DNA of 64,000 bases from Psammoneis japonica (Eukaryota): assembly GCA_008632985.1 (NCBI GenBank), contig QPGO01000155.1:1-64000 (forward strand), given 5' to 3'. Shown one piece after another: positions 5,230 to 25,489 of the stretch. Below the pieces are notes generated by a model. It was not told the origin of the DNA. It saw only the letters and a list, made by a program, of their open reading frames with translations, and made no database searches. The translations under genes and the position numbers were made by a program. Every line of letters begins with the position of its first letter. Within the stretch, counting starts at the first letter, position 1.

Positions 5230-8200
5230 TGAGTTTTCCATCACCAATTCGGGAACTCGGGGTCGACTGCTGTGCCCTTCTCCGTTCGAATCTTCTTCCA
5301 CCTGCGTTGCATTGCATGAGTTCCTGTCTCTTTCGTGTCATCTCCAATGTTGTGTCCATGTGGCACCTCCCAGTGTGGCACCCTGTTGGCATCTGGCACA
5401 GTGCAGCATTCAGCGGCATTTGGCTTGGCCCGTCTGCTGTGGTGCTCTCCCTTTCGCTTCCCACCACAACGGAAACAGCGCTGCGCCTGACGATCGGAAG
5501 CTTTTCTTTTCTTGCTGCTGCTTTCTTGACTTGGGGGAGGTTCCGGCATTCGGATGTGTCGCCTGTGTTGGATGGACTCCATGACAGCTTCATTCCGAGT
5601 CGGTCTGCTCATCTGAACGGGCGGCAAATTCACGGGTTGGGACTCTCCTGGTGCTCCACATGGCTCAGATCGTTCCGGTTGGTTTGAACGCGGTGATCGA
5701 AACGTTTGCTCACGAGCACTCGATTGCACGTTCTTTCGGATTCGCTTTGACTCGCTGCGCACAACAACTGTCCTGAGCACACCAGAGTCGGCACGAACTG
5801 TGCTTGTCTGTCGCATGGTTCTATCCTTGAGTTTCTGTCTCTCTGCCTTTTTGCAATGGGCTGCAAGAATCGGGGCTGTCTTTCTGAACATTTGACGACG
5901 CTCACTGAGGGGTTTCTGCCATTCAGTGTCTACAAGGTCATCCCAATGGGTGTTCATGCGCACAAAATCATACAACCCTCGCTGGTTTCGGTTGTTCTGA
6001 CTGCGTTTTGTGAACTGCGGCAGCACATCCTGAAATAGTTGACTCAGCATGCATTTTAGTTGTCGGCGTTGGAACATTGTGGCGATCGTGCGCAGTGCTG
6101 GAGCGGCGCAGGCGGTGTCAGCAGTGACGACTGCCATCTTCTCCAGCCATCTTGAATGGCAATGACGACACTGTAAGTGCAGATTGCTGAATTGTGCATT
6201 TGTTTTGTCATTGCCGAGTTCTCATCCATCGTCACCAATTTGGAAACTCAGGGTCGACGCCAATGTTGTTGTCCATCGGATCCTCTTCCATGTTCGCTTT
6301 GCAATGTTTGAGTCTACTGCTCTGAGATCATCTCCAGCATTGCAGCCATTTGGCACTTCCCAGTGTGGTGCCCTGGCCTCAGCCGGCACGGTGCAGTGCT
6401 CCGTGCTGTTGGGCTTTGCCCTGCGGTTGTGACGTGGACCATTTCGGGTCAAACCACAACGGAAGCAGCGCTGCGCCTGGCGAGTGGAAGCTTTTCTTTT
6501 CCTGTTTTCATGATGTGGTGGAGGATCTGGCATTCGGATGTGTCGCCTGTTAGCTGCCAATTCCAACACAGCTGCATTTTGAGCCGGTCTGCTTGTGTTT
6601 GCAGGCGGCAAATTCATGGGCTGGCACTCTCCTGCAACCCCAAACGGCTCAGACCTTTCTGGTGGGTTTGGAAGAGGATCACGAAAGGTTTGTGCACGAG
6701 CTGTTTCTTGTGTGTCTGCTCGGATTCTATCTGTCTCCCTGCTCACAATGACTGTTCTCTCGACGCCAGTGCTGTCACAAGTGGTTGTGGTTTGCCGCAC
6801 AGTGCGAGCTTTGAGTTTCTGTCTCTCGACCTTTTTGTGATGTGCCGAGAGAACAGGCACTCGCCAAGTGGTTTTTGCCATTCAGCATCTGCCAGATCAT
6901 CCCAGCATGTGTTCATGCGTGCAAAGTCATGCAAACCCCGCTGGTTTTGGTTGTTTTGTGCTGCTTTTGCGAATCTTGGGAGCACTTCCTGAAACAATTC
7001 GGCTTCACAGCCGGTGACCTGAGTGACCGGAACACCATCCCTTCCATCTCGTTCCGCTGGAATTCCAAAGCTTCGGACATGGCGTTTTCTGCTGTTGCTG
7101 CAGGTGACTCGGAATCCTCCACATTGATTGTTGCCATGCACCGGTCCTCAATCGGCGTGCATGCACCTCCTCCGGCATGTCCAAAGTCATTGGGGTTTAC
7201 AAGGTCGCCTTGGTGCTGATGCACTCCATGCTCATAGTTTGCGGTTTGCATGTTGTGGACTGTTTCGTGATTGTAGAATTGCGAGTGCTCGGAAGGTGCA
7301 AGTCCCCTTTCTGCTGCGCGATCATGGTTCCATCGGTGTGCAAATGTGGCCAGAAGACAAACCGCTGGCAAGGGGGATGAATGACATGCCGCTAGAGCTT
7401 CTTTCAGGTGCTTGTGAAAGCCTTCGAGCTGCGAAGTGCCACGAATTCAATGCATGGTTGTTTTCCCACTCGACGGATTGGCTCGGATGTGGCAGCAGTC
7501 AAAGCCTGGTCTGTCGCTCACACATCCTTTTTGGACATGTTTGACAAAGTTGAAATGAACTTTCCAGGTTTCCTTTGAAAAGAGTGGTTCCCCCGACTTG
7601 GCGCACTTGACATTGGCAATGAATCGAACCATGCTCTTGATTCGTGCCAAAAGATCGCGGGGTGGGGGCATTGTTCTCTCGATGTCCGCCAAGGTCTTGG
7701 ACGACGGCCGATTCATCCTCCTTTGCACCTCCTTCTTTGCTTCCTCGTGATTGTTGTGCCACCTGCCATGCACATGGTTTGTGAGCTTTGCCGCCAGCTT
7801 CTCGACTTCAAGGTCCAGCCGCTCCTGATTGATTGGCAGCATGGAGTCACGAAGCAGTCCCGACGCTTCTTCATAAAAACCATGCTTCTTCTTCCAAGTG
7901 CTTTTGACATCCTTGAGAAAATGGAAGCAATCCCCTTTCACACAGTTTCGTGCGAACACCTCGGCAGCTGCTTCATCCCCAGCAAGCAACTCAATGTCGC
8001 CGTCCTCGTGATCATGCTGCAGCACTGCAAACTGGAGCTCATCATCATCGTTTTTGTTTCGAGAGCCATGTGAGTCTGGGAACTCACTCAGGCTGCTTCC
8101 TTCTGGCAGGTGCCCTGTTTCTTCTTCGTTTGAGCTGAGGTCTCCCCTTGGTGAGCTGGAACCGGCAGGGTTGCTGCAGCATCACATTTCGTGTGAAAAA

Positions 8201-10024
8201 TTGTGCGAACCCAGATGACGTCGGCCAAATTCAGCTCCAAGATTTCCTTCCCTCCGCCAAACACTCCTCATCACGCGCTTCGCTCGCCAAGAACAAAAAA
8301 CAACGCAACGACACAATGATGGTGTCGCTCCCAAGAGCAGCAGAAGCAATGCGGCATTTGAGCCACAAGCTGCCACAAGCAAACACACCACACGCCAAGG
8401 CACCAACAGAGAGACAGCTCGGGTGCTGATGCTGCAGACAGCATTCAGAAGAGACAGCACAGGCGACGAAGCCACCCTCGTTGACCCAACTTCTCGACTC
8501 GAATGGTCGACTCAGCTTGTTCTCTTGGTGGCTGTGGCATCCTTTGGTGGACCCAAATGCAAGTTTCTCCTTGAAGATTTGTTTTTGCTCGAAAATGACT
8601 TCAACAGTGGTTCTGCTTGCTTTGGTCGTGCACCGTGCCGGTTCCAGGTTGCGAGTGCTCGGAAGGTGCAAGTCCCCTTTCTGCTGCGCGATCATGGTTC
8701 CATCGGTGTGCAAATGTGGCCAGAAGACAAACCACTGGCAAGGGGGATGAATGACATGCTGCCAGAGCTTCTTTCAGGTGCTTGTGAAAGCCTTCGAGCT
8801 GCGAAGTGCCACGAATTCAATGCATGGTTGTTTTCCCACTCGACGGATCGGCTCGGATGTGGCAGCAGTCAAAGCCTGGTCTGTCGCTCACACATCCTTT
8901 TTGGACATGTTTGACAAAGTTGAAATGAACTTTCCAGGTTTCCTTTGAAAAGAGTGGTTCCCCCGACTTGGCGCACTTGACATTGGCAATGAATCGAACC
9001 ATGCTCTTGATTCGTGCCAAAAGATCGCGGGGTGGGGGCATTGTTCTCTCGATGTCCGCCAAGGTCTTGGACGACGGCCGATTCATCCTCTTTTGCACCT
9101 CCTTCTTTGCTTCCTCGTGATTGTTGTGCCACCTGCCATGCACATGGTTTGTGAGCTTTGCCGCCAGCTTCTCGACTTCAAGGTCCAGCCGCTCCTGATT
9201 GATTGGCAGCATGGAGTCACGAAGCAGTCCCGACGCTTCTTCATAAAAACCATGCTTCTTCTTCCAAGTGCTTTTGACATCCTTGAGAAAATGGAAGCAA
9301 TCCCCTTTCACACAGTTTCGTGCGAACACCTCGGCAGCTGCTTCATCCCCAGCAAGCAACTCAATGTCGCCGTCCTCGTGATCATGCTGCAGCACTGCAA
9401 ACTGGAGCTCATCATCATCGTTTTTGTTTCGAGAGCCATGTGAGTCTGGGAACTCACTCAGGCTGCTTCCTTCTGGCAGGTGCCCTGTTTCTTCTTCGTT
9501 TAAGCTGAGGTCTCCCCTTGGTGAGCTGGAACCGGCAGGGTTGCTACAGCATCACATTTCGTGTGAAAAATTATGCGAACCCAGATGACGTCGGCCAAAT
9601 TCAGCTCCAAGATTTCCTTCCCTCCGCCAAACACTCCTCATCACGCGCTTCGCTCGCCAAGAACAAAAAACAACGCAACGATACGATGATGGCGTCGCTC
9701 CCAAGAGCAGCAGAAGCAATACGGTATTTGAACCACAAGCTGCCACAAGCAAACACACTATATACCAAGGTACCAACAGAGAGATAGCTCGGGTGCTGAT
9801 GCTACAGACAGTATTCAGAAGAGACAGCATAGACGACGAAGCCACCCTCGTTGACCTAACTTCTCGACTCGAATAGTCGACTCCGCTTGTTCTCTTGGTG
9901 GCTGTGGCATCCTTTGGTGGACCCAAACGCAAGTTTCTCCTTGAAGATTTGTTTTTGCTCGAAAATGACTTCAACAGTGGTTCTGCTTGCTTTGGTCGTG
10001 CACCGTGCCGGTTCCAGGTTGCGA
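5230..10024 (-). mobile_element. Rearranged DNA-transposon relic with DDE-type transposase fragments (MULE/ISL3-like DxxH; RGTSQLEGFH...RWN type)
   Basis: Minus strand reads DCFHFL...IERTMPPPRDLL...GEPLF...HVQKGCVSDRPG...MH*IRGTSQLEGFHKHL...HRWNHDR. The C-terminal part is present twice in diverged form (5241-6137, 6222-7141) and the core is present twice (7447-8025, 8817-9395). Confidence 0.55.
7279..10024. repeat. Near-identical 1370-bp tandem duplication (7279-8648, 8649-10018) with TTGCGA microhomology at the junctions
   Basis: Matching ORFs are offset by exactly 1370 bp (7447/8817, 7723/9093, 7950/9320). TTGCGA occurs at 7279, 8649 and 10019. Confidence 0.95.
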
Positions 10025-10333
10025 CATGATGGCGGCCATAGGCCCACGTCTTAATGTTTGTCGTCTCTGTTCTTCAACGTACTGGTGAATAAGGCGTCAG
10101 TGCTACGATTCATTCAGTTTTTTTTTACTTGAGTGACTGAAGCAAAGGAAAAAAGAAAAGAAAATGATCCACGACAGGCCGTCTGAGATTCAGTGCCACT
10201 ACGATGTTTTGGGAGGTCCCTCGATGCCACAGCTGCTCTAACCACCCAGCAAATACTGCCGTATGATAAAGATTATTCACAGTCTTTTACCTTAATTGAT
10301 TGTTGCTAACATCACCACCATTCATTGCTTTCC

Positions 10334-10694
10334 ATGGCGTTGAGCCAGGATGAATTGAAGAAGATGATCGGATACAAGGCCGTTGATGATTACGTGAAGA
10401 GCGGCATGATGGTTGGACTCGAACGGGAGGCACTGCTTACTATGCTGTCGAGCGTGTTGGCGAATTGCTCAAGTCTGGCAAACTCAAAAACATCCTTGCC
10501 ATTCCCACTTAGATCCGTACAAAAAATCAAGCTGAGAGCCTTGACATTCCGTTGGTGACCCATTCCAAGCTGGACGTTGCGACAGACGGTGCCGACGAAG
10601 TCGATCCTGATCTCAACCTTAGCAAGGGAGACGGCGGAGCTTTGTTCAGGGAAAAGATTGTGGATGTCTGCTCTGACAAGTTCATCGTTATTGG
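10334..10694 (+). pseudogene. rpiA: Ribose-5-phosphate isomerase A pseudogene (5' part, frameshifted)
   Basis: MALSQDELKKMIGYKAVDDYVKSGMMVGL, then a frameshift, then ...TAYYAVERVGELLKSG...[30 protein letters not shown] (RpiA DGADEVD and KGxGGALxREK motifs), with an internal stop. Confidence 0.85.
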
Positions 10695-10719
10695 TAAGTG
10701 GTTGAGAAGTAAACTATCG

Positions 10720-11904
10720 ATGGTATCGCCCTTTTGGTCCTTCGCCAACTCCAACTTTTCGTTGGAGACAGACAAGGCCAGTTACAGAGTCAAGGTAGTC
10801 ATGGCCCAAGTCGGGAGTATCCTTGGTCCTACTGTTGTGAATCGATACGGTCCTACCAAGTGTTACCTTGTTGGTGCACTCTGTGTGCTCTTGGCCGAAG
10901 AACAGCAAGGTGAAGGAATTCTTGGACCAAGGGCATTTTCGCCATTTCATACCTCTTCGTGGTTGAAGTCACCATTGATGATTACACCATGAAGGTGCTG
11001 GCGCGAGACTACTTTGCCGATCATCTTCATCCTTGTCTGAAGGTATGAGTTGCGACAATCCTCATAACGGAGACCACGGCATGTCGCAAGACGCAACCGC
11101 CGCCTTTACCACCATATGGGACTCTTCGGGCGAGCCACTAACACGCTATCCTTCCTCTTGAACGTGTTGGGAACGAATGCAGTTATTCGTTGTTTGGGAT
11201 TGTGCTTGACGCTTTTTTTGTTCCCCTCGCTCTGTCGGTCTGGTTGTCATTATCTTTTTCAGATTTCATGCGACCCTTTACGTTGTCTTTGCAGCCATAA
11301 TGTTGCCCAAGGCTTGTTCCTACGCCTTGAACAATCCCACGAAGGAAATGCTCTACCAACCAAACTCGCCTGCTGTCAAGTACAAGCCAAAGTCGTGGAT
11401 TGATATCTTTGGTGCACGTGGAAGCAAGGTAAGCGCAAGCTCGTCACACACTTGTCACCAAGAAAATGATGAAGGGTACTCACATCTACCTGTATATCCC
11501 TTAAATGTTTTACGATTTTTCTTTACCTTTAGGCTACGGGAAGTGTTGTGACGAACGCCTTCTCTAACTCTGCGTCGTCCTTGGTTACAAACGGTAGCTT
11601 GGTGGGAATGGCGGTCGCCTCCTTTTTGATTTGGAATGCCCGCTTCATGGTAAAGAAATTCGGTTAATACTCCGAGAGCGGATACATTGTCGGAGGCGAC
11701 AATGATGAGTATAACCAAATGAACAATGGTGAGAAGAACTTGGAAACGGCCATGGTGCAGACCGAAGACAAGGATACGAGTTGTGCCATTGCCGATGACA
11801 CCGAGGTTGGGTCGGAAGAAGAAGGAGAGTCCGTTGATGGCAGTGCTGCCAGCCTAGGCAGCGATATGGACAGCAAGGGAGACGCTCGAATACAAATGGT
11901 GTAG
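10720..11904 (+). pseudogene. TLC/NTT (ATP/ADP or nucleotide transporter) family pseudogene fragments
   Basis: [12 protein letters not shown]...[38 protein letters not shown]...[17 protein letters not shown]. Multiple frameshifts and deletions. Confidence 0.75.
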
Positions 11905-12339
11905 ACGTAGGTCGACACTTACTTTGAGAATGATTGCTTGTAGACGACCTACTCCATTCCCTTTTTCACGATGAGACACACAAGGTGCAGAAAGATACTT
12001 AGAGCATGATACTCTCTTTTGAGGATTTTTCAAATATTTGAATGATTACTACTAGCGCAATGATAGTCTCTTTAGTACCAACTAGAGGGTTTGCAAGGGA
12101 CTCCATATTTCTGAACGAAGTCAGAGTCGTGCGAAGGATTGCACTCTATCCCAAGTACAGTATGAGAATCCAGTGAATGTCATAGTGGTTTAGCGGTAAG
12201 TTTCCCAAAGATAACGATTCATGCATTCCGCCGGGTATACCATTTGGTTGGATCGGATATTTGCTTCGCGGCCAAACTGTTTCTGCATATCCTCAGCAGC
12301 TCGACGCATGGGCTGTAAAAAGAAGGGCGCGCGCATTCT

Positions 12340-12504
12340 AGCGAATAAATCTGGATGTGGAGGTGCGGCTACATCCACAGCTCCCTTACCGTTCGTAAGC
12401 TTAAAGATTCGTTATCGTATCATTCTCTCTAACGTTATAAGCTACTCTTCTCTCTTGTGGCTTGTACTAGTACCGTCTGTACGACCACCGCATCGGATTT
12501 TACT
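12340..12504 (-). repeat. 3' LTR (165 bp), TpA retained
   Basis: Direct repeat of 18868-19019. On the minus strand it is preceded by a short purine-rich tract (GCGGGGACCG) and a CGAGTCGG...CCGACTCG hairpin. Confidence 0.9.
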
Positions 12505-12651
12505 CGGTCCCCGCGAGTCGGCATTACTAGACCGACTCGTACTCTCGAAACATCCTCTTGTTAAGAGGTAAAACACACCCAGTTAGCCGCCAATTAGTTT
12601 GGCCTGGGAGGTCGCAAGACGTGGACGCGAGTCACAGGCCCTGGACCTTGG

Positions 12652-15600
12652 CTACCAAAACAGAAATGAACAAAGCTGCCATCGCTTCTCACCCTTCAAA
12701 ACTTTCGTCAACAGATCCGCAAGATTGGTCTCAGTGTCTTCCTTTCCGACCCTCGTGATCCCAGCCGCAACCGCTTCCCTCACTGAATGGTAGTTGATCG
12801 CGTTGTGCTTCTTGTGCAATGTGGATTTGGGAACACTTACATTCTTTACCACGCCACGATTGTCACAAAACACATTCGCCGGCCCATCAACCGGGACCCC
12901 AAACATGCGAAGCTTGCAACGCAGCGTGACAATCATCTCCTTACAAATCCGCATTGCCACTGACTCGCTCCCAAATGCAGACGTTTCCACTGTATTCTGC
13001 TTCTTGCTGAACCACATGGTTGGTGCATTGTTCACAAAGAGGACAACCCCAGAGTGCGACCTGCGAGTGACGACATTCCCAGCATGATTCGCATCGACAA
13101 ACGCACTGACAGTTGCCGGATTCCCGTGCGCCTTCGGCATTCTGGGCGGCATTTCCTCCTCGACTTCTCTGCAGAACTCCGTCCAGTCCGCCTTGGTGTT
13201 AAACAGTGACTCATCGATCTCAGGCACCTTCGGATCGCAACCCACTTGGCCCATGTTTGGGTGCTTCTTCATGTGCGCGAAGACGTGATGCAGCGCCTCC
13301 AAACGCCCTTTCCTCGGGTTTGCCTGACATTGAGACAACAAAGACACTTCAAGCAGCACATCAATGCGCCCAAGTTCAATCGCCCACCTTGCTGTCCCAA
13401 TCAGCTGCAAGTGTCGCGACAACAGTTCTGGCCCCAACTCATCCGTCACGTCCAACTCCGGTTTGCAGTTTGCTGGAAACGGGCCCTTTGCGTTGTTCTT
13501 GAGAACCGCACCATTGCGGTCCTCCGTCAGCAGGTCCTCCACTGTCTTAATTGCATTCTTGATGTGCGCCCATGGAGAGCTGGCCCAAATCATTCGCCCA
13601 TCTGGAGTCTGTGCCTTCTCGATCGTGGCGCCCAGGCATGTCTCAGGTTCACCTTCGCTTCCGGGTTTGATTTTGCAATGCGACAAAATTGCTTCGCAAA
13701 TTGACTTGCCTTGGTGTGATGCGATCAACACATCATCGACACAGACCAAAAGCATCTTGTGGTGCTCGTGTCCGTCCCCGCGAGCCGCGGCATGCAGGCA
13801 AACGTCTGGATCTGCTGGAGTCGGCTCGAAACCCACATCGCGGAGTGCAGAGGCAAATGCTGATCGCCAAGAAAACCCCGCGCTCTTCAGTCCGTAAAGT
13901 GCTCTGACAACAATTAACACGCACCCTTTGAACTCACCGCACTCAGTGCCACCCTCAAACCATGTCTTCTCAGCACACGGTGCATTCAAATGTGCATTCT
14001 CCAGGTCAATTGCAGTGACATCAACGCCGTTGAGCGCCGCCAACATGAGAGCAATGCGAATGCTGTCTCGGGAAACCACACTGGAGCACACAATCAAATC
14101 TGGGGCTGCAGCAGCATGTCCGCCCGCAACAAACCTTGCCTTGCGAGTGAAGCCCATCTCAACGTCGAAGACCATGTGACACTGGATTTCCTGGTGACCT
14201 CGCAACGCATTGCTCTTGCCCTTGCGAACCTCCTCGGGTGTCTCACCTTTGTGTTTGCGCCAGGCGACCTTTGCCTTGCTCATTTCCTTGTTGATTGCTC
14301 GTGCCCAGTAATCTGTCCCCGTTTCTCTGTCGATCCGGAGTGCATCATCCACACTCTTTGGCAGCATGACCCCAAACTTGTGCATCGTGCGCCAACACTT
14401 TGACTTGGCCTTGGAAATGGTCCGGCTGCGCTTGCGCAAAACATGTGACACCCTCCAAGCAAACGCTGGTTCATCAGAGATCCGGTTTGCCACTGCGCAT
14501 TCGTCAACTTCAATCGGGTTAGACGCCTTGAGGTCTTTTAGCTTGACCCAGCTTGTGCTCCCATCGCGCCAGAGTGCCAGAAGCTCCCATCCCTTTGTTG
14601 TGGCCTTTTGTTTAACCTGCCCACCGGCTGTCGTGACCGTGCCATCTGCGGCTTTCCGGTGGTCCTGAATCTCCTGCAAGATGGAGAATTGACGCCCCTC
14701 CAAGTCGACCTGAGCATGCATGTTCTTGGCAATGATGTTTGCAGCACACTTGTCTGTCGTGCCATCGGCAAACTCGACCTCATGCTCCCTCATGTCAAAC
14801 AGTGAGTGCTGGTGCCGCCGACCCAGGGGCCTGCCATCGTTGCCGCGCGCTTGCTTTGTGACTGCCCCACGCCTTTCACCCTCGGTGCCAACGTCCATGA
14901 TGAGCTCCATGCCAAGATGTTGGTCGACAACCTCCTCGTCATTGTTGTCTGGGCACTCACCATCCTGCAGCATGTCACCGCACTCCTCGTCGCTTGGGGT
15001 TGCGCCCCCTTCGCATTGGATCCCATCGCTTCCATCGATTGCAACATCGTCCAAACAGAAAGCCGGTGCTGCCTCGTCGCCCTCAACCACAAAGTTCGTG
15101 TCGTCAAGTTGCCAAGTCAAGGCCTCATTGAAATTGTTGATCTGCTTCCGCTTGTCCAACTCAACACAATCGGCCTGCACAACGTGCTCCACTGAGGTTT
15201 TCGACACCAACTCACCGCTCTCGGTGATGATCCAGCAGCACATGTCGGACCCAACCTTGTGCGACATGCCAAGCCAATGCCCAAGCCGCCTCGGATCGTC
15301 TGTTGCATTTGGCTTGTCTGGTCGGTCCCACCACCATGCTAAGTCGCAGAACCTAAAATCCAAGCACTCACCAATCTCTGGTGTTTGCCCAGTCACTTCC
15401 TCATGTCCGGTCCTGCAGTCACGTCCTCTGGCCATGTGCGACACCAGCTCTGACTCACACACAAGTCCAAAATCCCATGATCGCTTTGGCACTTTCTTCT
15501 TCATCATCCTGGGTCTCCAGCGCTTCACAAGGAATCCAATCTCGCGTTCCGCCACACAGTTCTGATTCTTGCGTCCCTGTTCCGAGTTTTGGAGCTGAGC

Positions 15601-15810
15601 GCGCATGCGCCTTGCGTGTTTGACGAACTCTGTGTTCTTGCCGGTGAACTCTCCAGCACCGTCCGTGAGCAATGTCTCAGGCACACCAACGTCATCCGTA
15701 AAGTCGATCAATGATTGCCCTGAGTCTGACCTGGCTGCCATGGGAACAACTTTGACAAACTTCCCCTGAGTGCAAACGTTCGCGCACGTGTTTCCCAGTG
15801 ATGACTTCAC
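12652..15810 (-). CDS. Copia pol (integrase core, reverse transcriptase, RNase H); catalytic YVDD reads CVDD
   Basis: LLTDGAGEF (integrase); TRKARFVAGGH, RALYGLKSAG and LLVCVDDVL (RT); AFVDANHAG...RRSHSG, FCDNRGVV and NLADLLTK (RNase H). Confidence 0.93.
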   Translation of the reverse strand: MKSSLGNTCANVCTQGKFVKVVPMAARSDSGQSLIDFTDDVGVPETLLTDGAGEFTGKNTEFVKHARRMRAQLQNSEQGRKNQNCVAEREIGFLVKRWRPRMMKKKVPKRSWDFGLVCESELVSHMARGRDCRTGHEEVTGQTPEIGECLDFRFCDLAWWWDRPDKPNATDDPRRLGHWLGMSHKVGSDMCCWIITESGELVSKTSVEHVVQADCVELDKRKQINNFNEALTWQLDDTNFVVEGDEAAPAFCLDDVAIDGSDGIQCEGGATPSDEECGDMLQDGECPDNNDEEVVDQHLGMELIMDVGTEGERRGAVTKQARGNDGRPLGRRHQHSLFDMREHEVEFADGTTDKCAANIIAKNMHAQVDLEGRQFSILQEIQDHRKAADGTVTTAGGQVKQKATTKGWELLALWRDGSTSWVKLKDLKASNPIEVDECAVANRISDEPAFAWRVSHVLRKRSRTISKAKSKCWRTMHKFGVMLPKSVDDALRIDRETGTDYWARAINKEMSKAKVAWRKHKGETPEEVRKGKSNALRGHQEIQCHMVFDVEMGFTRKARFVAGGHAAAAPDLIVCSSVVSRDSIRIALMLAALNGVDVTAIDLENAHLNAPCAEKTWFEGGTECGEFKGCVLIVVRALYGLKSAGFSWRSAFASALRDVGFEPTPADPDVCLHAAARGDGHEHHKMLLVCVDDVLIASHQGKSICEAILSHCKIKPGSEGEPETCLGATIEKAQTPDGRMIWASSPWAHIKNAIKTVEDLLTEDRNGAVLKNNAKGPFPANCKPELDVTDELGPELLSRHLQLIGTARWAIELGRIDVLLEVSLLSQCQANPRKGRLEALHHVFAHMKKHPNMGQVGCDPKVPEIDESLFNTKADWTEFCREVEEEMPPRMPKAHGNPATVSAFVDANHAGNVVTRRSHSGVVLFVNNAPTMWFSKKQNTVETSAFGSESVAMRICKEMIVTLRCKLRMFGVPVDGPANVFCDNRGVVKNVSVPKSTLHKKHNAINYHSVREAVAAGITRVGKEDTETNLADLLTKVLKGEKRWQLCSFLFW

Positions 15811-15855
15811 CTTTGAAATTAGGGCATCGGCATGCCACGTCCCCTTTAGTCGCTT

Positions 15856-16938
15856 TCAGTGCAGGTCCAAGTGATCCACCCTGACGCGCCTTGACATGGG
15901 CCATGTTGACGTCCTGACACCCCGCTGAGTGGTCACATTAAGTGTGTCCTTTGCTGCATCTAGGCCGACGTTCCACTCACGCGCCAGCTCTTCAGGAGTG
16001 ATCTTTGAGTGTCTGTCCTGGGTCCTCAGTTCAGAGATCTTGCGCTCGCGCCTGTTGACATCCTCCCTGCATGTGCAGGCAATCTTCACAGATGCAATCA
16101 TGCGGTCACAGAACGTCTGGAGGTTGTGAATCGGGGAAATGCTTGCCACAGTTTCTTCGACTTCTCCCCACTCTACCGCCTTGGACTGCTTTCTCTCTGC
16201 TCTCATCTCTGCAATCTCAGACTTGCGCATGTGAGAGGTCAAGGATTGAACAGTGCGCATTTCTTGTTGCTCACGAGTTTTGTTCGGGAAACCCATGTCC
16301 ACCTCTGTCGGGTTCCACATCTTGCCGGTCAAGATGATAACTGGCAAATTCTGCTCCTCCCAATCTGTTGGCACTCGAGTGTTGAAGGACACCACTGTCC
16401 CCGTGGTGTGGAAAGGGATGAAGGCTTCGTCCGTTGAAATGCCAAATGAGTCCTGAGGATCGTACGGGTTGTCATTGACTGGCATGTTGCATGCACGCAG
16501 TTGGTTTGGATTGATCAAGGAGTGTTCCATCTGCTGCCCAAACCATGACATCCAGTCGCCCACCAGCAGGCAATTCTTCGTCGTCTCCGGGTCTGTCCAA
16601 ACAGCGCAGCAACGTGTGACCGGAATCTCTTTAACAGGTTCATGCGATTCAAGGAAAGGACTTGCTTCGCATGTTTCATTCGTGAGCTCCATGAGTTTCC
16701 AATTTGCTCCGGCGCAGCAAGTGTCTGCATGTGTGTCACATTCATTTCGCAAAACGTGCCCCGGCTCTGTGTGTGTTGATGTCGTGGTCGCGTTTGCGGC
16801 CCTTGCACTGCACTTGGAAATCACTGAGATCCTGCGAGGTGTGCTTTTGAGGGTGTTTGGGTGGGGTTGAGACAGCAACAAGACCAAGATCAAGGGCAAA
16901 ACAAACACGTTTACGCAGCATGCACCAAGTGCTGTCAA
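15856..16938 (-). CDS. Copia protease / pre-integrase region
   Basis: NECDTHADTCCAGAN (aspartic-protease-like motif), SLINPNQLR, ITPEELAREWNVGLDAAKDTLNVTTQRGVR. The true start is probably internal or frameshifted from gag. Confidence 0.8.
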   Translation of the reverse strand: MTALGACCVNVFVLPLILVLLLSQPHPNTLKSTPRRISVISKCSARAANATTTSTHTEPGHVLRNECDTHADTCCAGANWKLMELTNETCEASPFLESHEPVKEIPVTRCCAVWTDPETTKNCLLVGDWMSWFGQQMEHSLINPNQLRACNMPVNDNPYDPQDSFGISTDEAFIPFHTTGTVVSFNTRVPTDWEEQNLPVIILTGKMWNPTEVDMGFPNKTREQQEMRTVQSLTSHMRKSEIAEMRAERKQSKAVEWGEVEETVASISPIHNLQTFCDRMIASVKIACTCREDVNRRERKISELRTQDRHSKITPEELAREWNVGLDAAKDTLNVTTQRGVRTSTWPMSRRVRVDHLDLH

Positions 16939-16956
16939 AGCTGTTGCCCCACACCT

Positions 16957-18411
16957 TCAGGACCGCCCTCCGCAGGCACCGCGCCCAAATCCTGCACCAT
17001 GGCGCCCACCATTGTCGTCGCTGCCTCCTCCGCCACCTGCGGTGCTGGGTGTCACTTGATGATCGTCCTGTTGCTTGCCATCCTTCTGCACTGCTGCCAC
17101 TTGGCGTTTGTTGTTGCGAGGGCCACCTCGCCCTTGCGAGTGGCCTCCACGGCCCTGCATGTGCTCCCCAGCTTGCCTCACGTAAGTCCAACCCCCGTTG
17201 GGTTTGAGCCCATCCCATTCGTCGGGAGAGAAAGTGCAAGTTGGGTCAGTGCAATCAACACCATTGATTGAGACCTCACCGCCGTGGCCACGACCGCCGT
17301 CGCGACCGCAGCCTCGACCACGTCCACGTCCTCCTCCGTCGCAGTTGCGACCACGTCCGGGGCCACCCGCAACCTGGGAGACCTTGCGCTTGTTCCTGCA
17401 ACACTGCGCCTCGAGCTGCGCTGGGCCGTGTAAACGAGCAACCTCTTTAGAGAAGAAGGTGCAGGCCCCTGCAAAGTCATTGCCAAAGCGTTCGCTGATG
17501 ATCGCCGTGCATGCGCAGAGGGCAACATCGTCCGTCTCAATCCCTTTTGGGAGTGCATCTGCTTTCTGGGAAGCGCTGGTTAGTTTGGAAGTGTACATTT
17601 CAAATGACAAGCACCTTTCATTTTTGTGATGCAGCATCTCGAGCTGCTTCTTGGCCAATTGAGTGTGCTTGCTGAGCTCGCCCTGGCCGTCACAGTGATC
17701 GGACCATGCCCAAAAGGCACGCCGCCTGTCCTTGGTGTCATTGAAAGACTCAATCCATGCGCATCCGTCCGTGTTGATGAGGCATTCCTTGAGGAAATGG
17801 CACACGGTCTTGTTGTCTTCCTCGAAGGATGGTCCGTTCAAGGGGACATCGAACATGCGCTGCTTGGCAGTGTCTGCAAATGCCGCCGGTGCTGCTGCGG
17901 GCCTCACCACATGACGCAAAGGTTCCTGATTGACCCCAAGCTTCTGAGATGAGAGGTTGAGGAACGCGTCTTCCATGGTCTCAAACTCGTCTGCGTCAAA
18001 CTTCGGCAGATGGCTCACTTTCGTGTCAGAGTCAGGACGATTGGCCTGAACACGCTTTAACTCACGTGCCACAACCAACGCCGCATGATCAAAGTCTGCC
18101 GCCACCAGGGCTTGTCCAAGCTTCTGAAGATCATGAAGCCACCAAACCAAGACTTGTAGATTTTTGAGCTGGATGGCACCTGTCACCACCCTGCCATCCT
18201 GCACGGCACGCCTGCCGGCGCGACTTGCCAACTCTTCGATGTCTTTGTCACTCTCCATCAGGGCTGAGTCTTCCAGGGTGTCAAATCCATCGTAAAAGAC
18301 GAGAGGAGCCCTTCCTCCTTGATTGGCAAAGCCACACACTTGCAACACGGCATCAACATTGTCAGCCGCTGCCAAAGCCGCAAGGGCTGCTCCTGGCGGG
18401 GCTGCTGCCAT
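16957..18411 (-). CDS. Copia gag-like ORF with an RGG-rich C-terminus
   Basis: 484-aa ORF between the PBS and pol; GGRGRGRG tracts; PLRHVVR...FEEDNKTVCHFLK...DGCAWI typical of diatom copia gag. Confidence 0.8.
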   Translation of the reverse strand: MAAAPPGAALAALAAADNVDAVLQVCGFANQGGRAPLVFYDGFDTLEDSALMESDKDIEELASRAGRRAVQDGRVVTGAIQLKNLQVLVWWLHDLQKLGQALVAADFDHAALVVARELKRVQANRPDSDTKVSHLPKFDADEFETMEDAFLNLSSQKLGVNQEPLRHVVRPAAAPAAFADTAKQRMFDVPLNGPSFEEDNKTVCHFLKECLINTDGCAWIESFNDTKDRRRAFWAWSDHCDGQGELSKHTQLAKKQLEMLHHKNERCLSFEMYTSKLTSASQKADALPKGIETDDVALCACTAIISERFGNDFAGACTFFSKEVARLHGPAQLEAQCCRNKRKVSQVAGGPGRGRNCDGGGRGRGRGCGRDGGRGHGGEVSINGVDCTDPTCTFSPDEWDGLKPNGGWTYVRQAGEHMQGRGGHSQGRGGPRNNKRQVAAVQKDGKQQDDHQVTPSTAGGGGGSDDNGGRHGAGFGRGACGGRS

Positions 18412-18853
18412 AGTTCTGTTGGTGAATGCAAGGGAAAAAGGTTAGGTTGTGAGATTTGCGCACGCACACTGGGTTGGTTGGGAGACTGAGCGCATCCGAG
18501 CGCCATGGCAATGGGTCCATGTAGCCAACCGGTGCTGGGTGGCCAAACCCAGACCATTTCTTTCTCATTGGGCACATGCCCGGGCATGCCGCCCCACGCT
18601 GCGCTGTCCAACACCCATTGACATGTTGGAAACTGTTTGAGTTGCAAGCGTGATCCCATTCTGACCGTAAATCCCATCGTCAAGTTCGACAATTTTCTCA
18701 TTCACACGTGGCAGATTCGCACACGTGGGACTCAGCACACTTTCTGCGGTCAGCTCCCAGGTGGTTCTCAACAACAGCGAATGTGTGCGTGTGTCGCTCT
18801 CAATGCAGGTCATGCAATCACAGTTTCAATGCGCCCAGATGCTCACTCTGAAG

Positions 18854-18866
18854 CCTGGCTCTGATA
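18854..18866 (-). other. Primer-binding site, tRNA-iMet-like (TATCAGAGCCAGG)
   Basis: Immediately inside the 5' LTR. Matches the familiar TGGTATCAGAGCCAGG PBS without the TGG. Confidence 0.75.
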
Positions 18867-18867
18867 A

Positions 18868-19019
18868 AGCGAGTGAATCTGGATGTGGAGGTGCGGCTAC
18901 ATCCACAGCTCCCTTGCCGTTCGCAAGCTTAAAGATTTGTTGTCGCATCATTCTCTCTGCTCTTCTCTCTTGTGGCTCGCATTGGTGCCGTCTGTGCGAC
19001 CACCGCATCGGATTTTACT
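18868..19019 (-). repeat. 5' LTR (152 bp), TpA largely converted, 13-bp deletion relative to the 3' LTR
   Basis: Aligns end to end with 12340-12504. Confidence 0.9.
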
Positions 19020-20010
19020 TGCTGGGACTGCTTTTCTTGCGACAACAAACAACCACCTGATGTGCCGCACCGCACAGCTGCGGGGATCTCTCCATTTGTG
19101 AGTCTCTCAAGCCGCTTGCCAGCCATGACACCCACACCAAGAGTTGTCATCGTTGAGCGCATGAGCAGTTTCTTCTGGACACGTCCAGCCATGCCTGATC
19201 CAAACAAGACCTCCATGCTTGTGGCCCCGATTCTGCATCCACAGGGACCATTGCAACCAGTGTTCAATCAGCATGGCTTCGGAGCGTCTCGAACACATTG
19301 TCATTTGGACCACTCAGGTGCTGACAGAGTCGATGGATCGAACAATTTCATGGCCTGTGGTTGACTCCAAAAATGTCATCAATTTCCCTCCCACTGTCAA
19401 TGATGGTGTCCACCCACTGGCGTTCTCTCTGTTTTGTCTTTGCTGTTTGTGTGAAGGCAACGCTGCATGAACCGCACTTGTCACAAGATTCAACATCAGA
19501 TCAAACGAATGTTCCGCTGCCCTTGTGCCGTCCTCACCCAGAGCTACAGCCAAAAGTGACGCATCCTTTTCGTCCTCTGCAAGAGAGAAGCATGCATCAC
19601 GTCGTCGCATGGGCGTCTCAACACAACGGTGTCCAGTTTTCTTTTTACCCTGCTTGTTCTCCCGAGCAAGAATCTGCCTTCAAATCCAAGATTTTGTGCT
19701 CTCGTTGTGTTCATCATTAGGAACAAAATGCTGTGGAAGCATCTGGACCACATGTCCACCATGACATCAGCACTCCACCTGCTTGATTGCTTCTGCCGAG
19801 GTCAACATTGACATGTCCTCCATTTTCCTGTGGACGTTCTGCAAGTGCGGCGCACTGATCACTCTCATGATGGATGGTTGCTGTTGTTGAATTGCTTTCA
19901 AAGCAACCACCGCAGCTCTTCTTCTCTGGCAACCGTCGCTCAAACTCAAGCCCCAGTCACCAAGAGCACTCGATTGTCACCACTCGAACAATCTTTGTTG
20001 CACCGAGTTT

Positions 20011-20312
20011 TCAAATTGCACTAAAACCGATCGCTGCTGCTGCTGTCCTGCAATGTTGTGATGCCGATCCTTGGATGTTCCCACCTGCGCGCCAAAACGA
20101 TCTCCCTTCTCCCGTCAAACAAATCACTGCAACCACACTTTCTGCATCCAACACCAACTGCATTCGGAAACATGTCTCGACAACAATTCGCAAACTTTTG
20201 TGTTGAAACAGTTCAGACGATCGGGACGATTCAACGACAGAATAACTGCATCTCCACCCGACTTGGGAAGACTGACGCGTTTCGACAGGATGGCCGCTGA
20301 CGACGCCACATG
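20011..20312 (-). pseudogene. Enoyl-CoA hydratase/isomerase-like N-terminal fragment
   Basis: AVILSLNRPDRLNCFN..., then a frameshift, then VICLTGEGRSF-x-AGGNI (crotonase LNRP and TGxGRxFCAGxD motifs). Confidence 0.6.
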
Positions 20313-20899
20313 CTTCTAGCTAGCTAGAGCTAGTCTAGGCAGAGAGTGGAGGTGCGATTTTTTGTTTCGTGCGCTTTCCGGCCGGCCGTCTTGGTCAGGT
20401 CGGAGGGAGAAATTTTCTGATTTCAAAATTTTGTGCTCCTGCATGCTTCCAAGTAACTGCACGTGTCGAACCATTCAACTCATGACAGCATCATCCACAT
20501 GACGAGAGAGGTTGCAATCGTTCATGGCAGTCTGACAAAGTCAAGAGCAACACGTGAGAAATGGCAGAATGCAAAATCCTCATTCTTGCTGCAGAAAAGG
20601 AGGGGTTGCGGTGTGCCGGCATGACGCTGTGTGCTGACAGGTGAAGATGTGCAAAGTCACCAAAGATGCAATTGACGACATTGTTGTGAGTGCTTCTGTG
20701 TGTTGAAGATTCTTCAGACTGCCTCCCCTTCCAATTGTTCTCACGCTTGACACACATTTCCAATGCTCATCGACGCAGCAAGCAAAAAAAATCAATTTGT
20801 CGGCAATTCCATCTTTCGCATCGATGGCGAAATCACGCAGCCGTGGAGCTTGCACACACAGGCCATTTGGCAAGATTTGCACCCTGTGAGAAATGTGAG

Positions 20900-23565
20900 G
20901 TTGCATCTTTGTAGAGACAATGCTGCCAAGGACACAGCTCTGTCGTCCTGTGCAAGGATGTGGAAGATCTGGATGACACGCGGACCCTCGCAACACTCAA
21001 CGCGAACGAGGAATGAAGGCTCACGTGTTTCCGCAGAGCTCGACATTCGGATCGAACTTTGTCATGCATTGGCTGCTCTTGCCAACATTCTTGAAACTGT
21101 TCGAGAATCTTTAAGCCAATCAATGAGATGCTTGAGGGATGTGCCGAGGCCACAGAAAACGGTGCCATCGACATTGTCCTCCGGATTGCGTCCTTGCCAG
21201 ACAGTTCTTTTGTGTTCCAAGGTGCTGATTTGATGAGCATGTCAACCTCATCATAGAATCTCTCCATTCTTTGTCATCAATCCCCCCTCTCCTGCTTTCA
21301 GAGTGTTGATCAAATTTTGCATGGTGCACATGTGGCATTTTGAAGGCTCTCGCTGCTTGCTCTGGTCCTGCCCCAGTCAAACTCAAAATTTTGATTTTAC
21401 GTGCCAACACTTGTGACAAAAAGGAAGACACTGCAATCAAATTGGGTTTGAAAAAAAAATGCCGTTGTTTCCAAGCATTCATGGCAGAAATGGCTGCAAG
21501 GAGAAACGCTTTTCTTGTGCTTTTCAATCAATCAGAGGATGTGACCATTCAGTTCTTGGCCCAAAACATGGATGACGTCGGCAAGTGCGGAGATGGATTT
21601 GCATTGCTTGTTCTGGAACTGACTTGCATGGTTTGTTGTTGTGATCCTGTTCACAAGTCACGATTTGTCCGGGTCTTGTGTCAGATGCTTTCCAACACGT
21701 CTGCTCCATGTCCTGCGAGGCAGTTTGGACTCCAGTGTTGTTTTCTTTGGTGACCACTCCCACTCGGGCTGCCGCTGTCACGTTTACAAACTTTTTGAAC
21801 AGCAAGAATGACAACAATTTCATGCTTGTTGTTCTCGAGCGATTGGAAGACCTCAAGACTTGTTGTCACAAGATCTTGCGGGAGCTGCTCATGGACATTC
21901 CTTTTGCTCTTAGTTCCCCAAGCGCTGACATCTGCAAGAAGGTCCTCGATGTTGCCATGGACATTGTCACCCCTCGTGACATCGCCAATGTGGTGTCAAC
22001 GCTCAAGGGCAAGATTGCCAAGACGGCTCAACAGTGGGACTTCACCATGGCGGAAGCTTGGGGCATGGCCCACCAGAACATGCTGATTCGGGCCATTCAC
22101 GGATGTGCTGTGCGATTCACCGATGTTGCCGAGTTGGTTGTTTTTAACCTCATGGACTTTTTGGACACTGATGGTGGCATGCAGGTTGCCATTTTGTCAT
22201 GAACCATTGTCGAACAGTGCCCCACACTGCCAGGATCAATCTTGCCCAAGTTGTTGGGTGCCGTTGAGGACATTTCTTCTGGCAACATTGTGTGCGCACT
22301 GGCATGCCTCTGGATCTTCGGTGAATGGTCGGATGCGGAGGAAACCAATGTGGTGACCTTTGAAACCACATTGGAACAGTCAAGTCCAACCCCATTCTTG
22401 ATTGCCAAGGAAGACAATCATGAAGAGAAGCACAAGGGAGAGGCTCCCAAAATGATCACCAAGAATGTCATGTTGGCCGACGGTGCTTGTGCAACCCAGA
22501 CCGTCCACCCCGAAGACGTTCTTCCGGATGAGTCAAACAATGAGATCATTTGCGCAAGATGTCTTGTGAACCGTTCTAGCTTCTTTTTGTCTTTGAGGGC
22601 TGCGGATCTGCCTCCAGTGGACCCATTGGTGATTGCGACAATCACGTCCAATGCGCTGCTTGTCATGTGTGGTGCAGTCAAAATGGCCAAGGCCAGCACT
22701 TCAGCTCGGCATCCCACCATGGCTGATCATTCAGAATGCATTGCACTGTTGCCGTGCGTTGTTGGAATCCAAGGCTTTGCTCAAGGACGCTCTCCTGAAC
22801 GATGGCAAAGCAACGTCTGCCCGGTTTCTCAAGACACTCAAAAAGAAACCAACATGCAAACTCGTTGCGGCACAGCCTGACAACTTGATCCACTTTCGTC
22901 AGTTGCTTCCCACAGCTTTTTAGGGTGGTGATGTCAACCTTGACAATGGAGACAATTTGGAAGGTGCCACTGGTCATGTTGGTGCCAACGATTTGCTTGG
23001 TCCTGGCTGAATCATGTCTGCCAACTCAGTTGCTTTGCGGATGATGTTTGCGCGGAGGACTTTGTCACGGTCCATGAACATGTTGGTGTCTTGGAGATTC
23101 TGGTGATCAATCGCACTCCCAACACACTGGCCAACTTGGTGGTGTAGCTTGCCACCATGGGTGAGACATGAAGAATGTCAAACGACCGCAGCATCAAAAC
23201 ATTGGCCCTCTCAATCAGGTCACCGTTAGCGCCTCCATCAAGGTCTTCTCCACCAAGATGCGGGGCATGTCTTTGGAGCCATTGTCTGTGAAGACACGGC
23301 GACATGAGAGAAGGGATGCATCAATCTCAAGGACATTCACATGGACATCAAGTGTTGCATTTGCCCCGCAACTTGTGCCGACGAAGCCTTTTGATCCATG
23401 TGGGCCGAGTTTGAATGGGAAAACAATGAGGTCGCCATTTCAACCTCATTCTCAACTTGTTGAATTTTCTCAATCACATTGTCGAGTCAACTAGCATGTG
23501 TTGCCTCACTCTGCATGACACTTTGGAAACGGCAAACTTCCTTGCCGCCAATCTCTGTGCAAGTG
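20900..23565 (+). pseudogene. COPB1: Coatomer subunit beta (beta-COP) pseudogene, hypermutated
   Basis: NDNNFMLVVLERL...LLMDIPFALSSPSADICKKVLD; LADGACATQT; DDVCAEDFVTVHEHVGVLEILVINRTPNTLANL; SMWAEFEWEN; FLAANLCA. Many frameshifts. Confidence 0.88.
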
Positions 23566-24394
23566 AGACAGTGCTCATTTTCAATTCGCGCTTCCCGATT
23601 GTTTCCCGGTGCGGTTTCGTGTTGAATGCTGTGCACTGCAACACGCTTTTTCACAAGCAGTGACTGTCACTGCCGGGAGACCAGGAGAAAGAAGCTTCTT
23701 GCGAAACTGTTGGCACCAACAAGGCACCTTGCGATGCACGCAGCACCATTGCAAGCATGGGTGCACACCCGTGTGGGATCAATCCTTGTGTGTGCTTTAG
23801 CGCAATGGTGCATCATGTCCATTTGCTGACAGAGCTCAAGTTTCACACTCTTTAAACCGTCAACTGACACAAGCGTGCTTTTGTTGTTTTTGGCAGTGAT
23901 TTTGGCAAAGACGCCCTCATTGTTAAGAAGGATGACAACGACATTGCTCTGAGTTTGGGAGGTTGCATCACCATCATTCAGAGGGCAATGCCCGAAGCCA
24001 AGCAGCAAAGCAAAGGATTGGGACAGAGCTCACAGAGTGTGTTCTGAGCCACAACACCACTTCTCAAGCATTGCACTGCATGGACTAGCCCCACCGGCAT
24101 GCATTTCATCCCACTCTCTGGGCTTCTCTACTTCGGTGTGGTTTCGTGGGCTGCTGCCACTGGAGGGTCGATCGCTTCCTTGACGCCAATCGGGAACAGG
24201 CTGCAGAGAACACAAAGTGCATTCTGAACTAAAAAATGCAACTTTAGCATGACACTGCATGTCTGGCCCGGCATGCGTTGATCATGCCATGGGCTTCTCT
24301 CCTTGAATTTGATTTCCATGGCTGCAACTGGGGTCGATTGCTTCCTTGCGCATGATGCCAATCGGCGATGGGCCACAGCCAAAACCGCAATGCT

Positions 24395-24610
24395 GGGCAG
24401 TGTGTGGATCAAGCCTCCCAGCAATGTTTGTGTTTGGCAATGACAAGATTGTGTGGGGATCCATTTGAACAAGAAGATTGAAAAGCTGCATGGATGACAA
24501 CGATGCCAGAGGCAGTGTGTGGATCAAGCCTCCTGGCAATGGTTGTGTTTGGCAACAACAAGATTGTGTGGGGATTGATTTGAATGAGAAGATTGAAAAG
24601 CTGCATGAAC
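24395..24610. repeat. Two tandem copies of about 115 bp
   Basis: GGCAGTGTGTGGATCAAGCCTCC...CAAGATTGTGTGGGGAT...GAAGATTGAAAAGCTGCATG at ~24396 and ~24511. Confidence 0.85.
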
Positions 24611-25489
24611 AACAAAGTTCTGCATTTGTTCTAGACGCCACAGAATGCTTTCCATCATCTGTCACCACAGAGAGGAGCCGCTGTCCTTCCTTGCACACAG
24701 ACAGAACCATTCCGCGATGCCAACACTTGCCTTGTTCTTTTCATTCTTGCACAATTCATTCTCCATGTCCAAAACAAGCAAGGGCTTTGTTCATTGACTG
24801 CCGCAGGTCTCAAGCAAATGCAAAAAGAGTCATCATGTCGTTGAAGCACCAATCATGCCTGGCACACATTTTGTTCCGGAAAACACAAGTCACGGGCGGG
24901 ACCCACTGTCACTTGAACCTTGGCATTTCAACAAAGACTGACTGCCACATCGTTCAAGTTGGGTGGTCGAACCGGTGTGAGGGCGCATTTCCATGTCAAC
25001 AAAATGAAGATGAAAAGCAATGTCAGCAAGCAAATCTTAGACAAAAAAGCAAAACAGACACGAAATTGACTTGCATTGGGGGTGCATTCAAATGTAGCGC
25101 AGCACAACAAGTGCACCCCATGGCATTTGAATTGCACGACAAACTCGTACAATGTTGGCAAGTCTTTGATGCGCACAAAAGCTGCATTGCACCATAAAAT
25201 GGAACAAAGAGATGCCCCCATGCATGCTCCATGTCCAAGAGCACAAAACAAGCAGCCAATGAGTCCAGTGGCGATTCATGATCTTTGCAGATCTACGCAC
25301 GACACGCCCAGCATTAGACGAAAGAAAGACGCTGCCCGTTGCTCCACCAAGCCCAGGCGAGCATCTCAAGAAGACAGGACAACGGGCTGCTTTCTCCTCA
25401 TTTCTCGCAACAACAACAATGCCCACCGGATCGCCGTTTTTGTCTGGCGACTCTGCATTCTCCAAGTCTTGATCCTCTCCTTCTGGCAC

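Follow-up and report, generated by a model that had tools for sequence, protein, structure and literature searches.

We examined a 64,000-nt stretch of the genome of the diatom Psammoneis japonica (GenBank assembly GCA_008632985.1, contig QPGO01000155.1, positions 1 to 64,000; hereafter the window) that carries a Ty1/copia retrotransposon at 12342-19021 on the minus strand. The two long terminal repeats (LTRs) of this element differ from each other mostly at sites where the 3' LTR has the dinucleotide TA and the 5' LTR has TG or CA. This asymmetry is probably explained by a hypermutation of TpA to TpG and CpA that acted on DNA, was restricted to chromosomal domains and followed a single insertion of the element. 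The window consists of sharply bounded TA-depleted domains and TA-normal islands, and one of the domain edges falls inside the element.

The stretch at 12340-12504 pairs with that at 18868-19019, and MAFFT, repeat finding and global alignment all agree on the pairing. The two copies differ by 14 substitutions, all of them transitions, and by one 13-bp indel that is present in the left copy but not in the right. At ten of the 14 sites (12347, 12388, 12396, 12414, 12418, 12444, 12465, 12469, 12472 and 12481 in left-copy coordinates) the left copy has TA and the right copy has TG (seven sites) or CA (three sites), and no site has the reverse polarity. The other substitutions (left/right) are A/G at 12345, C/T at 12410 (left CG, right TG), T/C at 12463 (left TG, right CG) and C/T at 12467. 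Only three TAs (18898, 18930 and 19016) are common to both aligned LTRs. A binomial null model that scatters transitions at random over the 152 aligned positions (TA accounts for 26 of these) gives a tail probability of P = 1.1e-5 for at least ten TA-class changes among 14, and a two-sided sign test on the 10:0 polarity gives P = 0.002. A contig from a sequencing run, with a k-mer depth of 33, is identical to the window at all 715 nt of 18886-19600, and because its part 18886-19019 spans nine of the ten TA-type sites, the TG and CA calls are not peculiar to the assembly, with the caveat that the run may be the source of the assembly itself.

The counts of substitutions, TA-class changes and shared TAs and the length of the indel had been given correctly by a sequence-only reading of the same DNA, which had also remarked that the 3' LTR abuts a normal island and was spared (it keeps 16 TAs in TA-normal surroundings) and that such changes would inflate age estimates drawn from LTR divergence. 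The latter holds as well, since divergence is 14/152 (9.2%) when all substitutions are counted and 4/152 (2.6%) once the TA class is removed, and LTR dating would thus come out about 3.5-fold too old here.

Contigs from three runs of one sample (X1-X3), aligned to 11800-19600 at 80% likeness or more, locate the insertion site. Two contigs from X1 and one from X2 match the window at 12105-12341 and again at 19074-19410 but lack the 6.7 kb in between, and 38-40 letters in their gap match 19026-19063 of the window by eye. These contigs carry a repeat of about 620 bp, roughly 85% alike to the flank of the element in the window, and because they lack the element they fix the insertion point, placing its ends at 12342 and 19021. 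The 3' LTR then lies at about 12342-12506 in a TA-normal island and the 5' LTR at about 18870-19021 in a depleted domain (both on the minus strand), where the latter retains three TAs, has TG or CA at the ten aligned TA sites and bears a 13-bp deletion relative to its partner. With the corrected ends a further transition is counted (C at 12505, T at 19020; a CG>TG change of the 5' LTR), which brings the total to 15. Directly outside these ends stand CTAG at 12338-12341 and CTGG at 19022-19025, which form a target-site duplication (TSD) whose domain-internal copy differs from the outer copy by TA>TG. Read as 5 bp, the TSD is TCTAG/GCTGG, with two differences. The sequence-only reading had found no TSD; the duplication had escaped notice because its inner copy carries the TA>TG change. 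The empty-site joint and the TSD together indicate that the element was inserted once with initially identical LTRs, and so answer the objection that the LTRs might be of different origin. The repeat that served as insertion target is itself split by composition: its left half (12105-12341) has 14 TAs in 237 bp and its right half (19026-19410) has none in 385 bp.

Between the repeats runs a single minus-strand gag-pol frame (12652-18411) in which a Pfam search finds RVT_2 (PF07727, E = 1.1e-13), and the repeats are thus the LTRs of one Ty1/copia retrotransposon. Homologues of the gag-pol protein are 54-67% identical to it, and those that carry names are reverse transcriptases of Fragilaria crotonensis. 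The frame, nearly devoid of tyrosine codons, is interrupted by internal TGA stops at 16957-16959 and 15856-15858; homologues have Arg at the latter, where CGA>TGA is a CpG step. The 3' untranslated and polypurine-tract (PPT) region at 12507-12651 is TA-normal, with eight TAs in 12506-12660. Adjoining the 5' LTR at 18855-18867 is a stretch like a primer-binding site (PBS), the minus strand of which reads TTATCAGAGCCAG; its TATCAGAGCC-like sequence resembles the tRNA-iMet PBS of copia elements and is a candidate for such a site. The 13 bp unique to the 3' LTR (12431-12443) contain, on the strand of the element, a motif like TTATAA or TATAA that is absent from the 5' LTR. Self-BLAST of the window returned no further copy of this LTR or element, and a second, distant copia fragment on the plus strand at 37094-39227, deep in a depleted domain. 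Direct repeats within that domain, at 37979-38323 and 38648-38991, overlap the second fragment, and 34 of their 73 mismatches are TG-versus-CA discordances.

Over the whole window the observed/expected ratio (o/e) of TA is 0.31, and those of TG and CA are about 1.46. Two-state hidden Markov model segmentation of the 64 kb yields six depleted segments that cover 38.4 kb (about 60%), with TA o/e of 0.00-0.10 and TG and CA o/e of 1.55-1.87, and five normal islands with TA o/e of 0.58-0.67. TG/(TG+CA) is 0.47-0.52 in every segment, indicating no strand bias. Nine of the ten domain edges switch within 100 bp; the remaining one, at 12660, lies within the copia element and trails a few TAs over about 500 bp. 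On its left is the TA-normal island 9501-12653 (TA o/e 0.67), and on its right the depleted domain 12667-26942 (TA o/e 0.10, CG o/e 0.72), which takes in most of the element and, beyond the 5' LTR, 7.9 kb of non-copia DNA that begins with the flank repeat's right half. In the transition zone of this edge (12655-13300) six TAs survive within 12661-13300, five of them in the sensitive T-A-Y contexts described below, and past 13300 into the domain TA survival is about 13%. The same domain holds a coatomer-beta (COPB) pseudogene at 21645-22877 on the plus strand, with an in-frame stop at 22200-22202 and no Tyr in its 185-aa open reading frame (ORF). It matches PDB entry 9qpq_H with E = 8e-22 and has Cys and His where the solved homologue has Tyr; host-type sequence is therefore affected as well as transposons.

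The depleted domains also differ in CpG content. Four of them (32331-40902, 42791-44397, 54961-57637 and 62236-63999) are strongly depleted of CpG (CG o/e 0.18-0.29, TA o/e 0.00-0.07), and the two large ones (5-9500 and 12667-26942) only mildly so (CG o/e 0.67-0.72, TA o/e 0.09-0.10).

The direction of change is from TA to TG or CA. We took as conserved Tyr columns those with Tyr in at least 80% of 40 full-length homologues, and of the 24 such columns in gag-pol, 14 are occupied in the element by Cys, eight by His and two by Tyr. Cys and His at these columns are exactly what TAY>TGY and TAY>CAY produce. Tyr makes up 0.36% of the element protein, compared with a mean of 3.36% (minimum 1.71%) in 72 homologues, and Cys 3.44% compared with 1.21%; the Tyr codons that survive in gag-pol number seven and are all TAC. 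The 654 conserved columns contain 117 mismatches, of which 38 amount to one TA>TG/CA step each and another 19 to CpG steps. As a control, the TPT gene in a normal island retains Tyr at 4/4 conserved columns, and among related environmental (metagenome) copia loci 77 of 79 have a TA o/e of 0.53-0.92. The polarity that had been proposed from the LTRs is upheld by these three comparisons, with 22 of the 24 Tyr columns now Cys or His, the island gene intact in its Tyr codons and nearly all relatives TA-normal. A family consensus that already carried TG or CA, which the sequence-only reading had named as an outcome that would overturn it, is contradicted at the level of proteins and related loci.

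A tandem duplication that has no copia in it shows the same dependence on position. Two units of 1.37 kb, 98% identical and both on the plus strand, straddle the domain edge at 9500: unit 1 (7279-8654) lies wholly in the depleted domain 5-9500 and unit 2 (8649-10024) crosses the edge. Where both units are inside the domain they have five differences over about 852 sites and their TG/CA choices are identical, which implies that this part was already hypermutated when it was duplicated. Where unit 1 is inside and unit 2 is outside, there are 23 differences over about 524 sites. All 16 TAs that the outside copy keeps in 9501-10024 are converted in the inside copy at 8131-8654, to TG or CA at 15 of them and by a double hit to CG at one. 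The inside copy has also undergone three CpG losses (the outside copy none) and two A>G changes at N-A-C. All 23 differences can be read as changes of the inside copy, and none demands a change of the outside copy. The duplication thus records an order of events, namely hypermutation, then duplication, then hypermutation again, and the domain edge held the same sequence position before and after it. With 16/16 TAs converted while other differences amount to about 0.7%, the implied rate at TA is hundreds of times that of the background. The junctions of the duplication share the microhomology TTGCGA. The doubly changed site, 8393-8394 against 9763-9764, went from an ancestral TA to CG by change of both bases, an outcome that is expected to be rare if a first hit removes its target.

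Three repeat pairs have both copies inside domains, and they contain 17, 14 and four dinucleotides, respectively, at which one copy has TG and the other CA. Such discordance is what independent hits on one ancestral TA leave behind. The sequence-only reading had held that the change happened on DNA, after integration, and according to chromosomal position; the flank halves with 14 and 0 TAs, the reach of the domain past the 5' LTR and the 16/16 conversions in the tandem duplication are all in line with this.

The TAs that survive in domains identify the preferred target as T-A-Y. Survivors are enriched in YTAR, with TTAA, CTAA and CTAG surviving at about 0.3-0.4 and ATAT, ATAC and GTAC at 0-0.04. 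Grouped by the number of strands on which the site reads T-A-Y, estimated survival is about 0.36 for none, 0.078 for one and 0.014 for two, which fits strands that act independently with survival of about 0.6 for T-A-R and 0.13 for T-A-Y (predicting 0.017 for two strands). A second measure makes no assumption about starting composition: at polarised sites with a single T-A-Y strand the hit fell on that strand in 16 of 20 cases (LTRs 4/5, tandem duplication 5/7, Tyr codons 7/8). When both strands read T-A-Y, the Tyr codons split 7:7. Three A>G changes are off target, and each is at N-A-Y.

Several public sequences bear the same signature. Two environmental copia copies, L028:1-1590 and L070:1-1126, belong to one family (81% alike), have TA o/e of 0.26 and 0.30 and differ from each other at 12 TG/CA discordant dinucleotides in pol; downstream of pol their TA content is near normal. 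Among database copia proteins, conserved Tyr has become His or Cys at 13/16 columns in P0095 and at 7/24 columns in P0088, and two control copia proteins (P0062 and P0116) retain 23/24 Tyr. Taken at the level of their sequences, P0095, P0088, L028 and L070 suggest that the process is not confined to this genome.

These results are consistent with the following course of events. A Ty1/copia element would have inserted once at 12342-19021 into a small repeat, its LTRs identical, and a later hypermutation would have rewritten TpA over a chromosomal domain of about 12660-26940, one end of which falls within the element. About 90% of the TAs would thereby have gone from the 5' LTR, gag-pol and the right flank, and the 3' LTR, the 3' untranslated region (UTR) and the left flank would have kept theirs. 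In the simplest chemistry an enzyme would deaminate adenine, and the resulting hypoxanthine, being read as G, would be fixed by replication; either strand of the self-complementary TA would serve, preferably in 5'-T-A-Y-3'. Each hit destroys its own target, which explains why CG is almost never the product and why the process saturates. A TA>TG/CA change cannot turn a sense codon into a stop, and long open frames therefore persist in the domains even as Tyr codons and TA-rich signals disappear. The process is restricted to domains with sharp bounds, made up of transposon-like and pseudogene sequence and of DNA that mostly defies annotation, and it acts repeatedly over time, far faster than the background. 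Silent, methylated chromatin probably marks the domains and would set their extent, as is suggested by their stable, sharp edges and by the CpG decay that several of them show. The class of mutation, its polarity, its restriction to domains, the edge within the element, the recurrence and the T-A-Y bias are seen in the data, whereas adenine deamination, an enzyme and the role of chromatin are inferred from them.

Other accounts of the asymmetry can be weighed against the same data. One would have the process aimed at copia itself, for example nucleated at the 5' LTR/PBS or guided by the transcripts, and fading toward the 3' end. In its favour, the segmentation edge (12653/12667) coincides with the stop codon of pol, and L028 and L070 are short of TA in pol alone, their downstream parts being near normal. 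However, depletion extends past the 5' LTR over 7.9 kb of non-copia DNA that includes a pseudogene of host type, the tandem duplication loses its TAs one-sidedly in the absence of any copia, and the 3' side of the plus-strand copia fragment at 37094-39227, which lies inside a domain, has only 0-1 TA per 500 bp. We therefore regard an element-intrinsic polarity as unlikely to be the explanation. Targeting by homology, through pairing or small RNAs as in repeat-induced point mutation (RIP), would make the domain edges the ends of repeats. The edges are indeed sharp and resemble the ends of inserted elements, paralogous copia contigs are many (265 at 80% likeness or more on 11800-19600), and the affected coatomer-beta sequence is a duplicated host-type gene fragment. 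Yet the 3' LTR and tandem unit 2 are repeats that were spared, and more TAs are left where summed paralogue depth peaks (383-665 at 12583-13104) than in gag, the 5' UTR and the 5' LTR (depth 65-148). A model in which TA loss follows the dose of homology was rejected because summed paralogue depth does not follow TA loss, and homology-dependent targeting as a whole seems to us quite unlikely.

Editing before integration, by an ADAR-like enzyme on RNA or a deaminase on cDNA with the 3' end later restored by gene conversion, would fit the preference of ADAR for a 5' U, and hypermutated retroelements are known from APOBEC and ADAR systems. It was nevertheless rejected as very improbable: reverse transcription makes both LTRs from one template, yet here they differ at ten TA sites; non-copia flanks and the pseudogene are equally depleted; the tandem duplication converted DNA that never passed through RNA; and the inner copy of the TSD was changed too. 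A systematic artefact of sequencing or assembly, for example the miscalling of a modified base in TpA, might be thought of for a signature so extreme and so domain-wise. Contigs of depth about 33 equal the window over 18886-19600 and 14019-14484, however (though the run may be the source of the assembly), the independent database entries P0095 and P0088 (proteins) and L028 and L070 (metagenome contigs) have the same signature, and the identical TG/CA choices in the duplicated inside parts reflect inheritance and not random miscalls. We rejected an artefact on these grounds as extremely improbable. The opposite polarity, in which a classical RIP-like C>T change at CpA/TpG created TAs in the island-side copy, involves dinucleotide classes that are generally known from fungal RIP. 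Conserved Tyr codons were lost, though, and not gained; the TA o/e of the islands (0.58-0.67) resembles that of the 77 of 79 intact relatives, and the islands carry functional genes; and it is the domains, at 0.00-0.10, that are abnormal. This polarity was likewise rejected, and we give it next to no credence.

Several points tell against domain-restricted hypermutation after a single insertion. A third copy of the LTR could not be read, so the ancestral base at each LTR site is inferred and not observed. The empty-site contigs, at about 85% likeness, are paralogues and not the same locus. The tandem duplication could in principle be two haplotypes that were mis-assembled in tandem, and the estimates of TA survival by context assume that domains started with the composition of islands. 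Some contribution of a polarity intrinsic to the element, finally, may have to be allowed for, given that the environmental relatives L028 and L070 also spare their 3' ends.

The closest known case is that of the chlorarachniophyte Bigelowiella natans. According to the main text of a recent preprint, 230 of 231 mutations in two integrated viral regions of mutation-accumulation lines were A>G/T>C and all were on TpA (Mettrop et al., bioRxiv 10.64898/2026.01.13.699255). The rate at TpA is given there as about 1000x background, 124 TpA-depleted clusters are described, the targets are integrated DNA of nucleocytoplasmic large DNA viruses (NCLDV) and virophages, and an ADAT2-like deaminase is proposed (bioRxiv 10.64898/2026.01.13.699255). 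The words 'trinucleotide', 'context', 'flanking', 'boundar' and 'diatom' are absent from the main text of that preprint, the supplements of which may hold context data. In the literature searched we found no report of TpA loss in diatoms, the B. natans preprint being the sole report found, and nothing beyond it on DNA adenine deamination in protists generally.

As far as the preprint's main text allows the comparison, the two cases share A>G/T>C changes confined to TpA, TpA depletion with CpA and TpG enrichment, restriction to discrete regions, a rate that is apparently orders of magnitude above background and a proposed adenine deaminase. The regions may in both cases be foreign or selfish DNA, although here, beside the copia element, the copia fragment and the pseudogene, most ORFs in domains have no Pfam match. 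They differ in host, B. natans being a rhizarian and the host here a diatom (a stramenopile). They differ also in degree, since depletion here is near saturation (TA o/e 0.00-0.10 over 60% of the window) and the main text gives a Rho of 0.45 for a B. natans NCLDV region. Integrated viruses are affected there, and here a retrotransposon, a pseudogene of host type and DNA that for the most part could not be annotated. Mutations in B. natans were observed de novo in cultured lines according to the same text, and here they are read from sequence comparison. The process is of the same kind in a different eukaryotic supergroup, and the window adds to that case the T-A-Y bias, edges narrower than 100 bp that are able to cut an element, CpG decay and an order of events.

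Ascomycete RIP depends on the RID/DIM-2 machinery and is premeiotic in its timing. It resembles the process described here in making irreversible, dinucleotide-specific transitions in selfish or duplicated DNA, in involving the trio of TA, TG and CA and in leaving compositionally skewed compartments. Unlike the process here, which destroys TA, RIP makes TA from CA and TG; RIP also creates stops, which TA>TG/CA cannot do. Repeat copies outside the domain (the 3' LTR and 9501-10024 of unit 2) are spared, unlike what homology dependence of the RIP type would entail. APOBEC3 and ADAR likewise produce clusters of deaminase-type transitions that inactivate retroelements, and the 5'-U preference of ADAR resembles T-A, but they act on RNA or nascent cDNA, before integration, and stop at the end of the element, whereas here the two LTRs are unlike each other, the changes extend to flanks and a pseudogene and both strands are affected equally. 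The CpG decay of methylated transposons is similar in that it is restricted to domains, yields TG and CA and is found in the same segments; it cannot remove TA, however, and the two large TA-depleted domains have a CG o/e of 0.67-0.72.

We tentatively propose, with rather less than even confidence, that diatoms possess a DNA adenine deaminase restricted to chromatin domains, which would repeatedly and almost quantitatively erase TpA from silenced DNA at 5'-T-A-Y-3', coincide with cytosine methylation and stop within tens of bases of active genes, and which together with that of Bigelowiella would represent a widespread genome defence of the Stramenopiles-Alveolates-Rhizaria (SAR) group and a mirror of fungal RIP. 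The window would extend a hypermutation known from one rhizarian preprint of 2026 to diatoms, a major and genetically tractable group of phytoplankton, and would point to a defence that is either old or repeatedly evolved. Builders of base editors would be interested in an adenine deaminase with T-A-Y specificity that works on genomic DNA, if it is real, as a natural source of adenine editors for double-stranded DNA. With its LTRs, its tandem duplication and its repeat pairs the window offers natural experiments in replicate on the rate, motif and timing of the process and on its dependence on position, in which paired copies can be sorted as inside/inside, inside/outside or duplicated after mutation. 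Practical consequences concern annotation as well as dating. With TAA and TAG erased and no sense codon becoming a stop, domains are rich in long spurious ORFs, and transposon proteins escape Pfam as Tyr turns into Cys or His and other codons that contain or straddle TA are altered. Dinucleotide-based analyses of such genomes are confounded.

The gene content of the window follows the same division. We searched 67 of its 77 ORFs of at least 150 aa against Pfam, ten being set aside for their overlap with the copia frame or with others of these ORFs, and found matches for nine, eight of them in normal islands and one in a domain. Domains contain the copia element, the second copia fragment, the coatomer-beta pseudogene and many long ORFs with no Pfam match. 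The genes of islands encode proteins with LNS2 and TPT matches, a K+ channel, a urea transporter and an Exo_endo_phos protein. The lipin/PAH1-like protein among them has its best named matches in Thalassiosira and Mayamaea, and the named best matches of the TPT-family protein are all from diatoms (Craspedostauros, Cylindrotheca, Nitzschia, Fistulifera, Epithemia and Entomoneis), at 56-65% identity. Together with the Fragilaria matches of gag-pol, these point to a diatom host whose nearest sequenced relatives are distant.

Thirteen further ORFs around the island 9501-12653 gave only RpiA and a weak TLC match in Pfam. Both are fragments, the RpiA-like one covering profile positions 8-70 of 173 and the weak TLC-like one positions 397-449 of 491, and it does not seem that the TA-normal state of an island requires an intact gene. 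The 1.6-kb segment 42791-44397 contains no TA at all and has razor-sharp edges. At its edge at 42789 eight TAs occur within 37 bp and then none for 1.6 kb, and only 70 bp separate this edge from where the intact TPT-family ORF starts (minus strand, 41548-42720).

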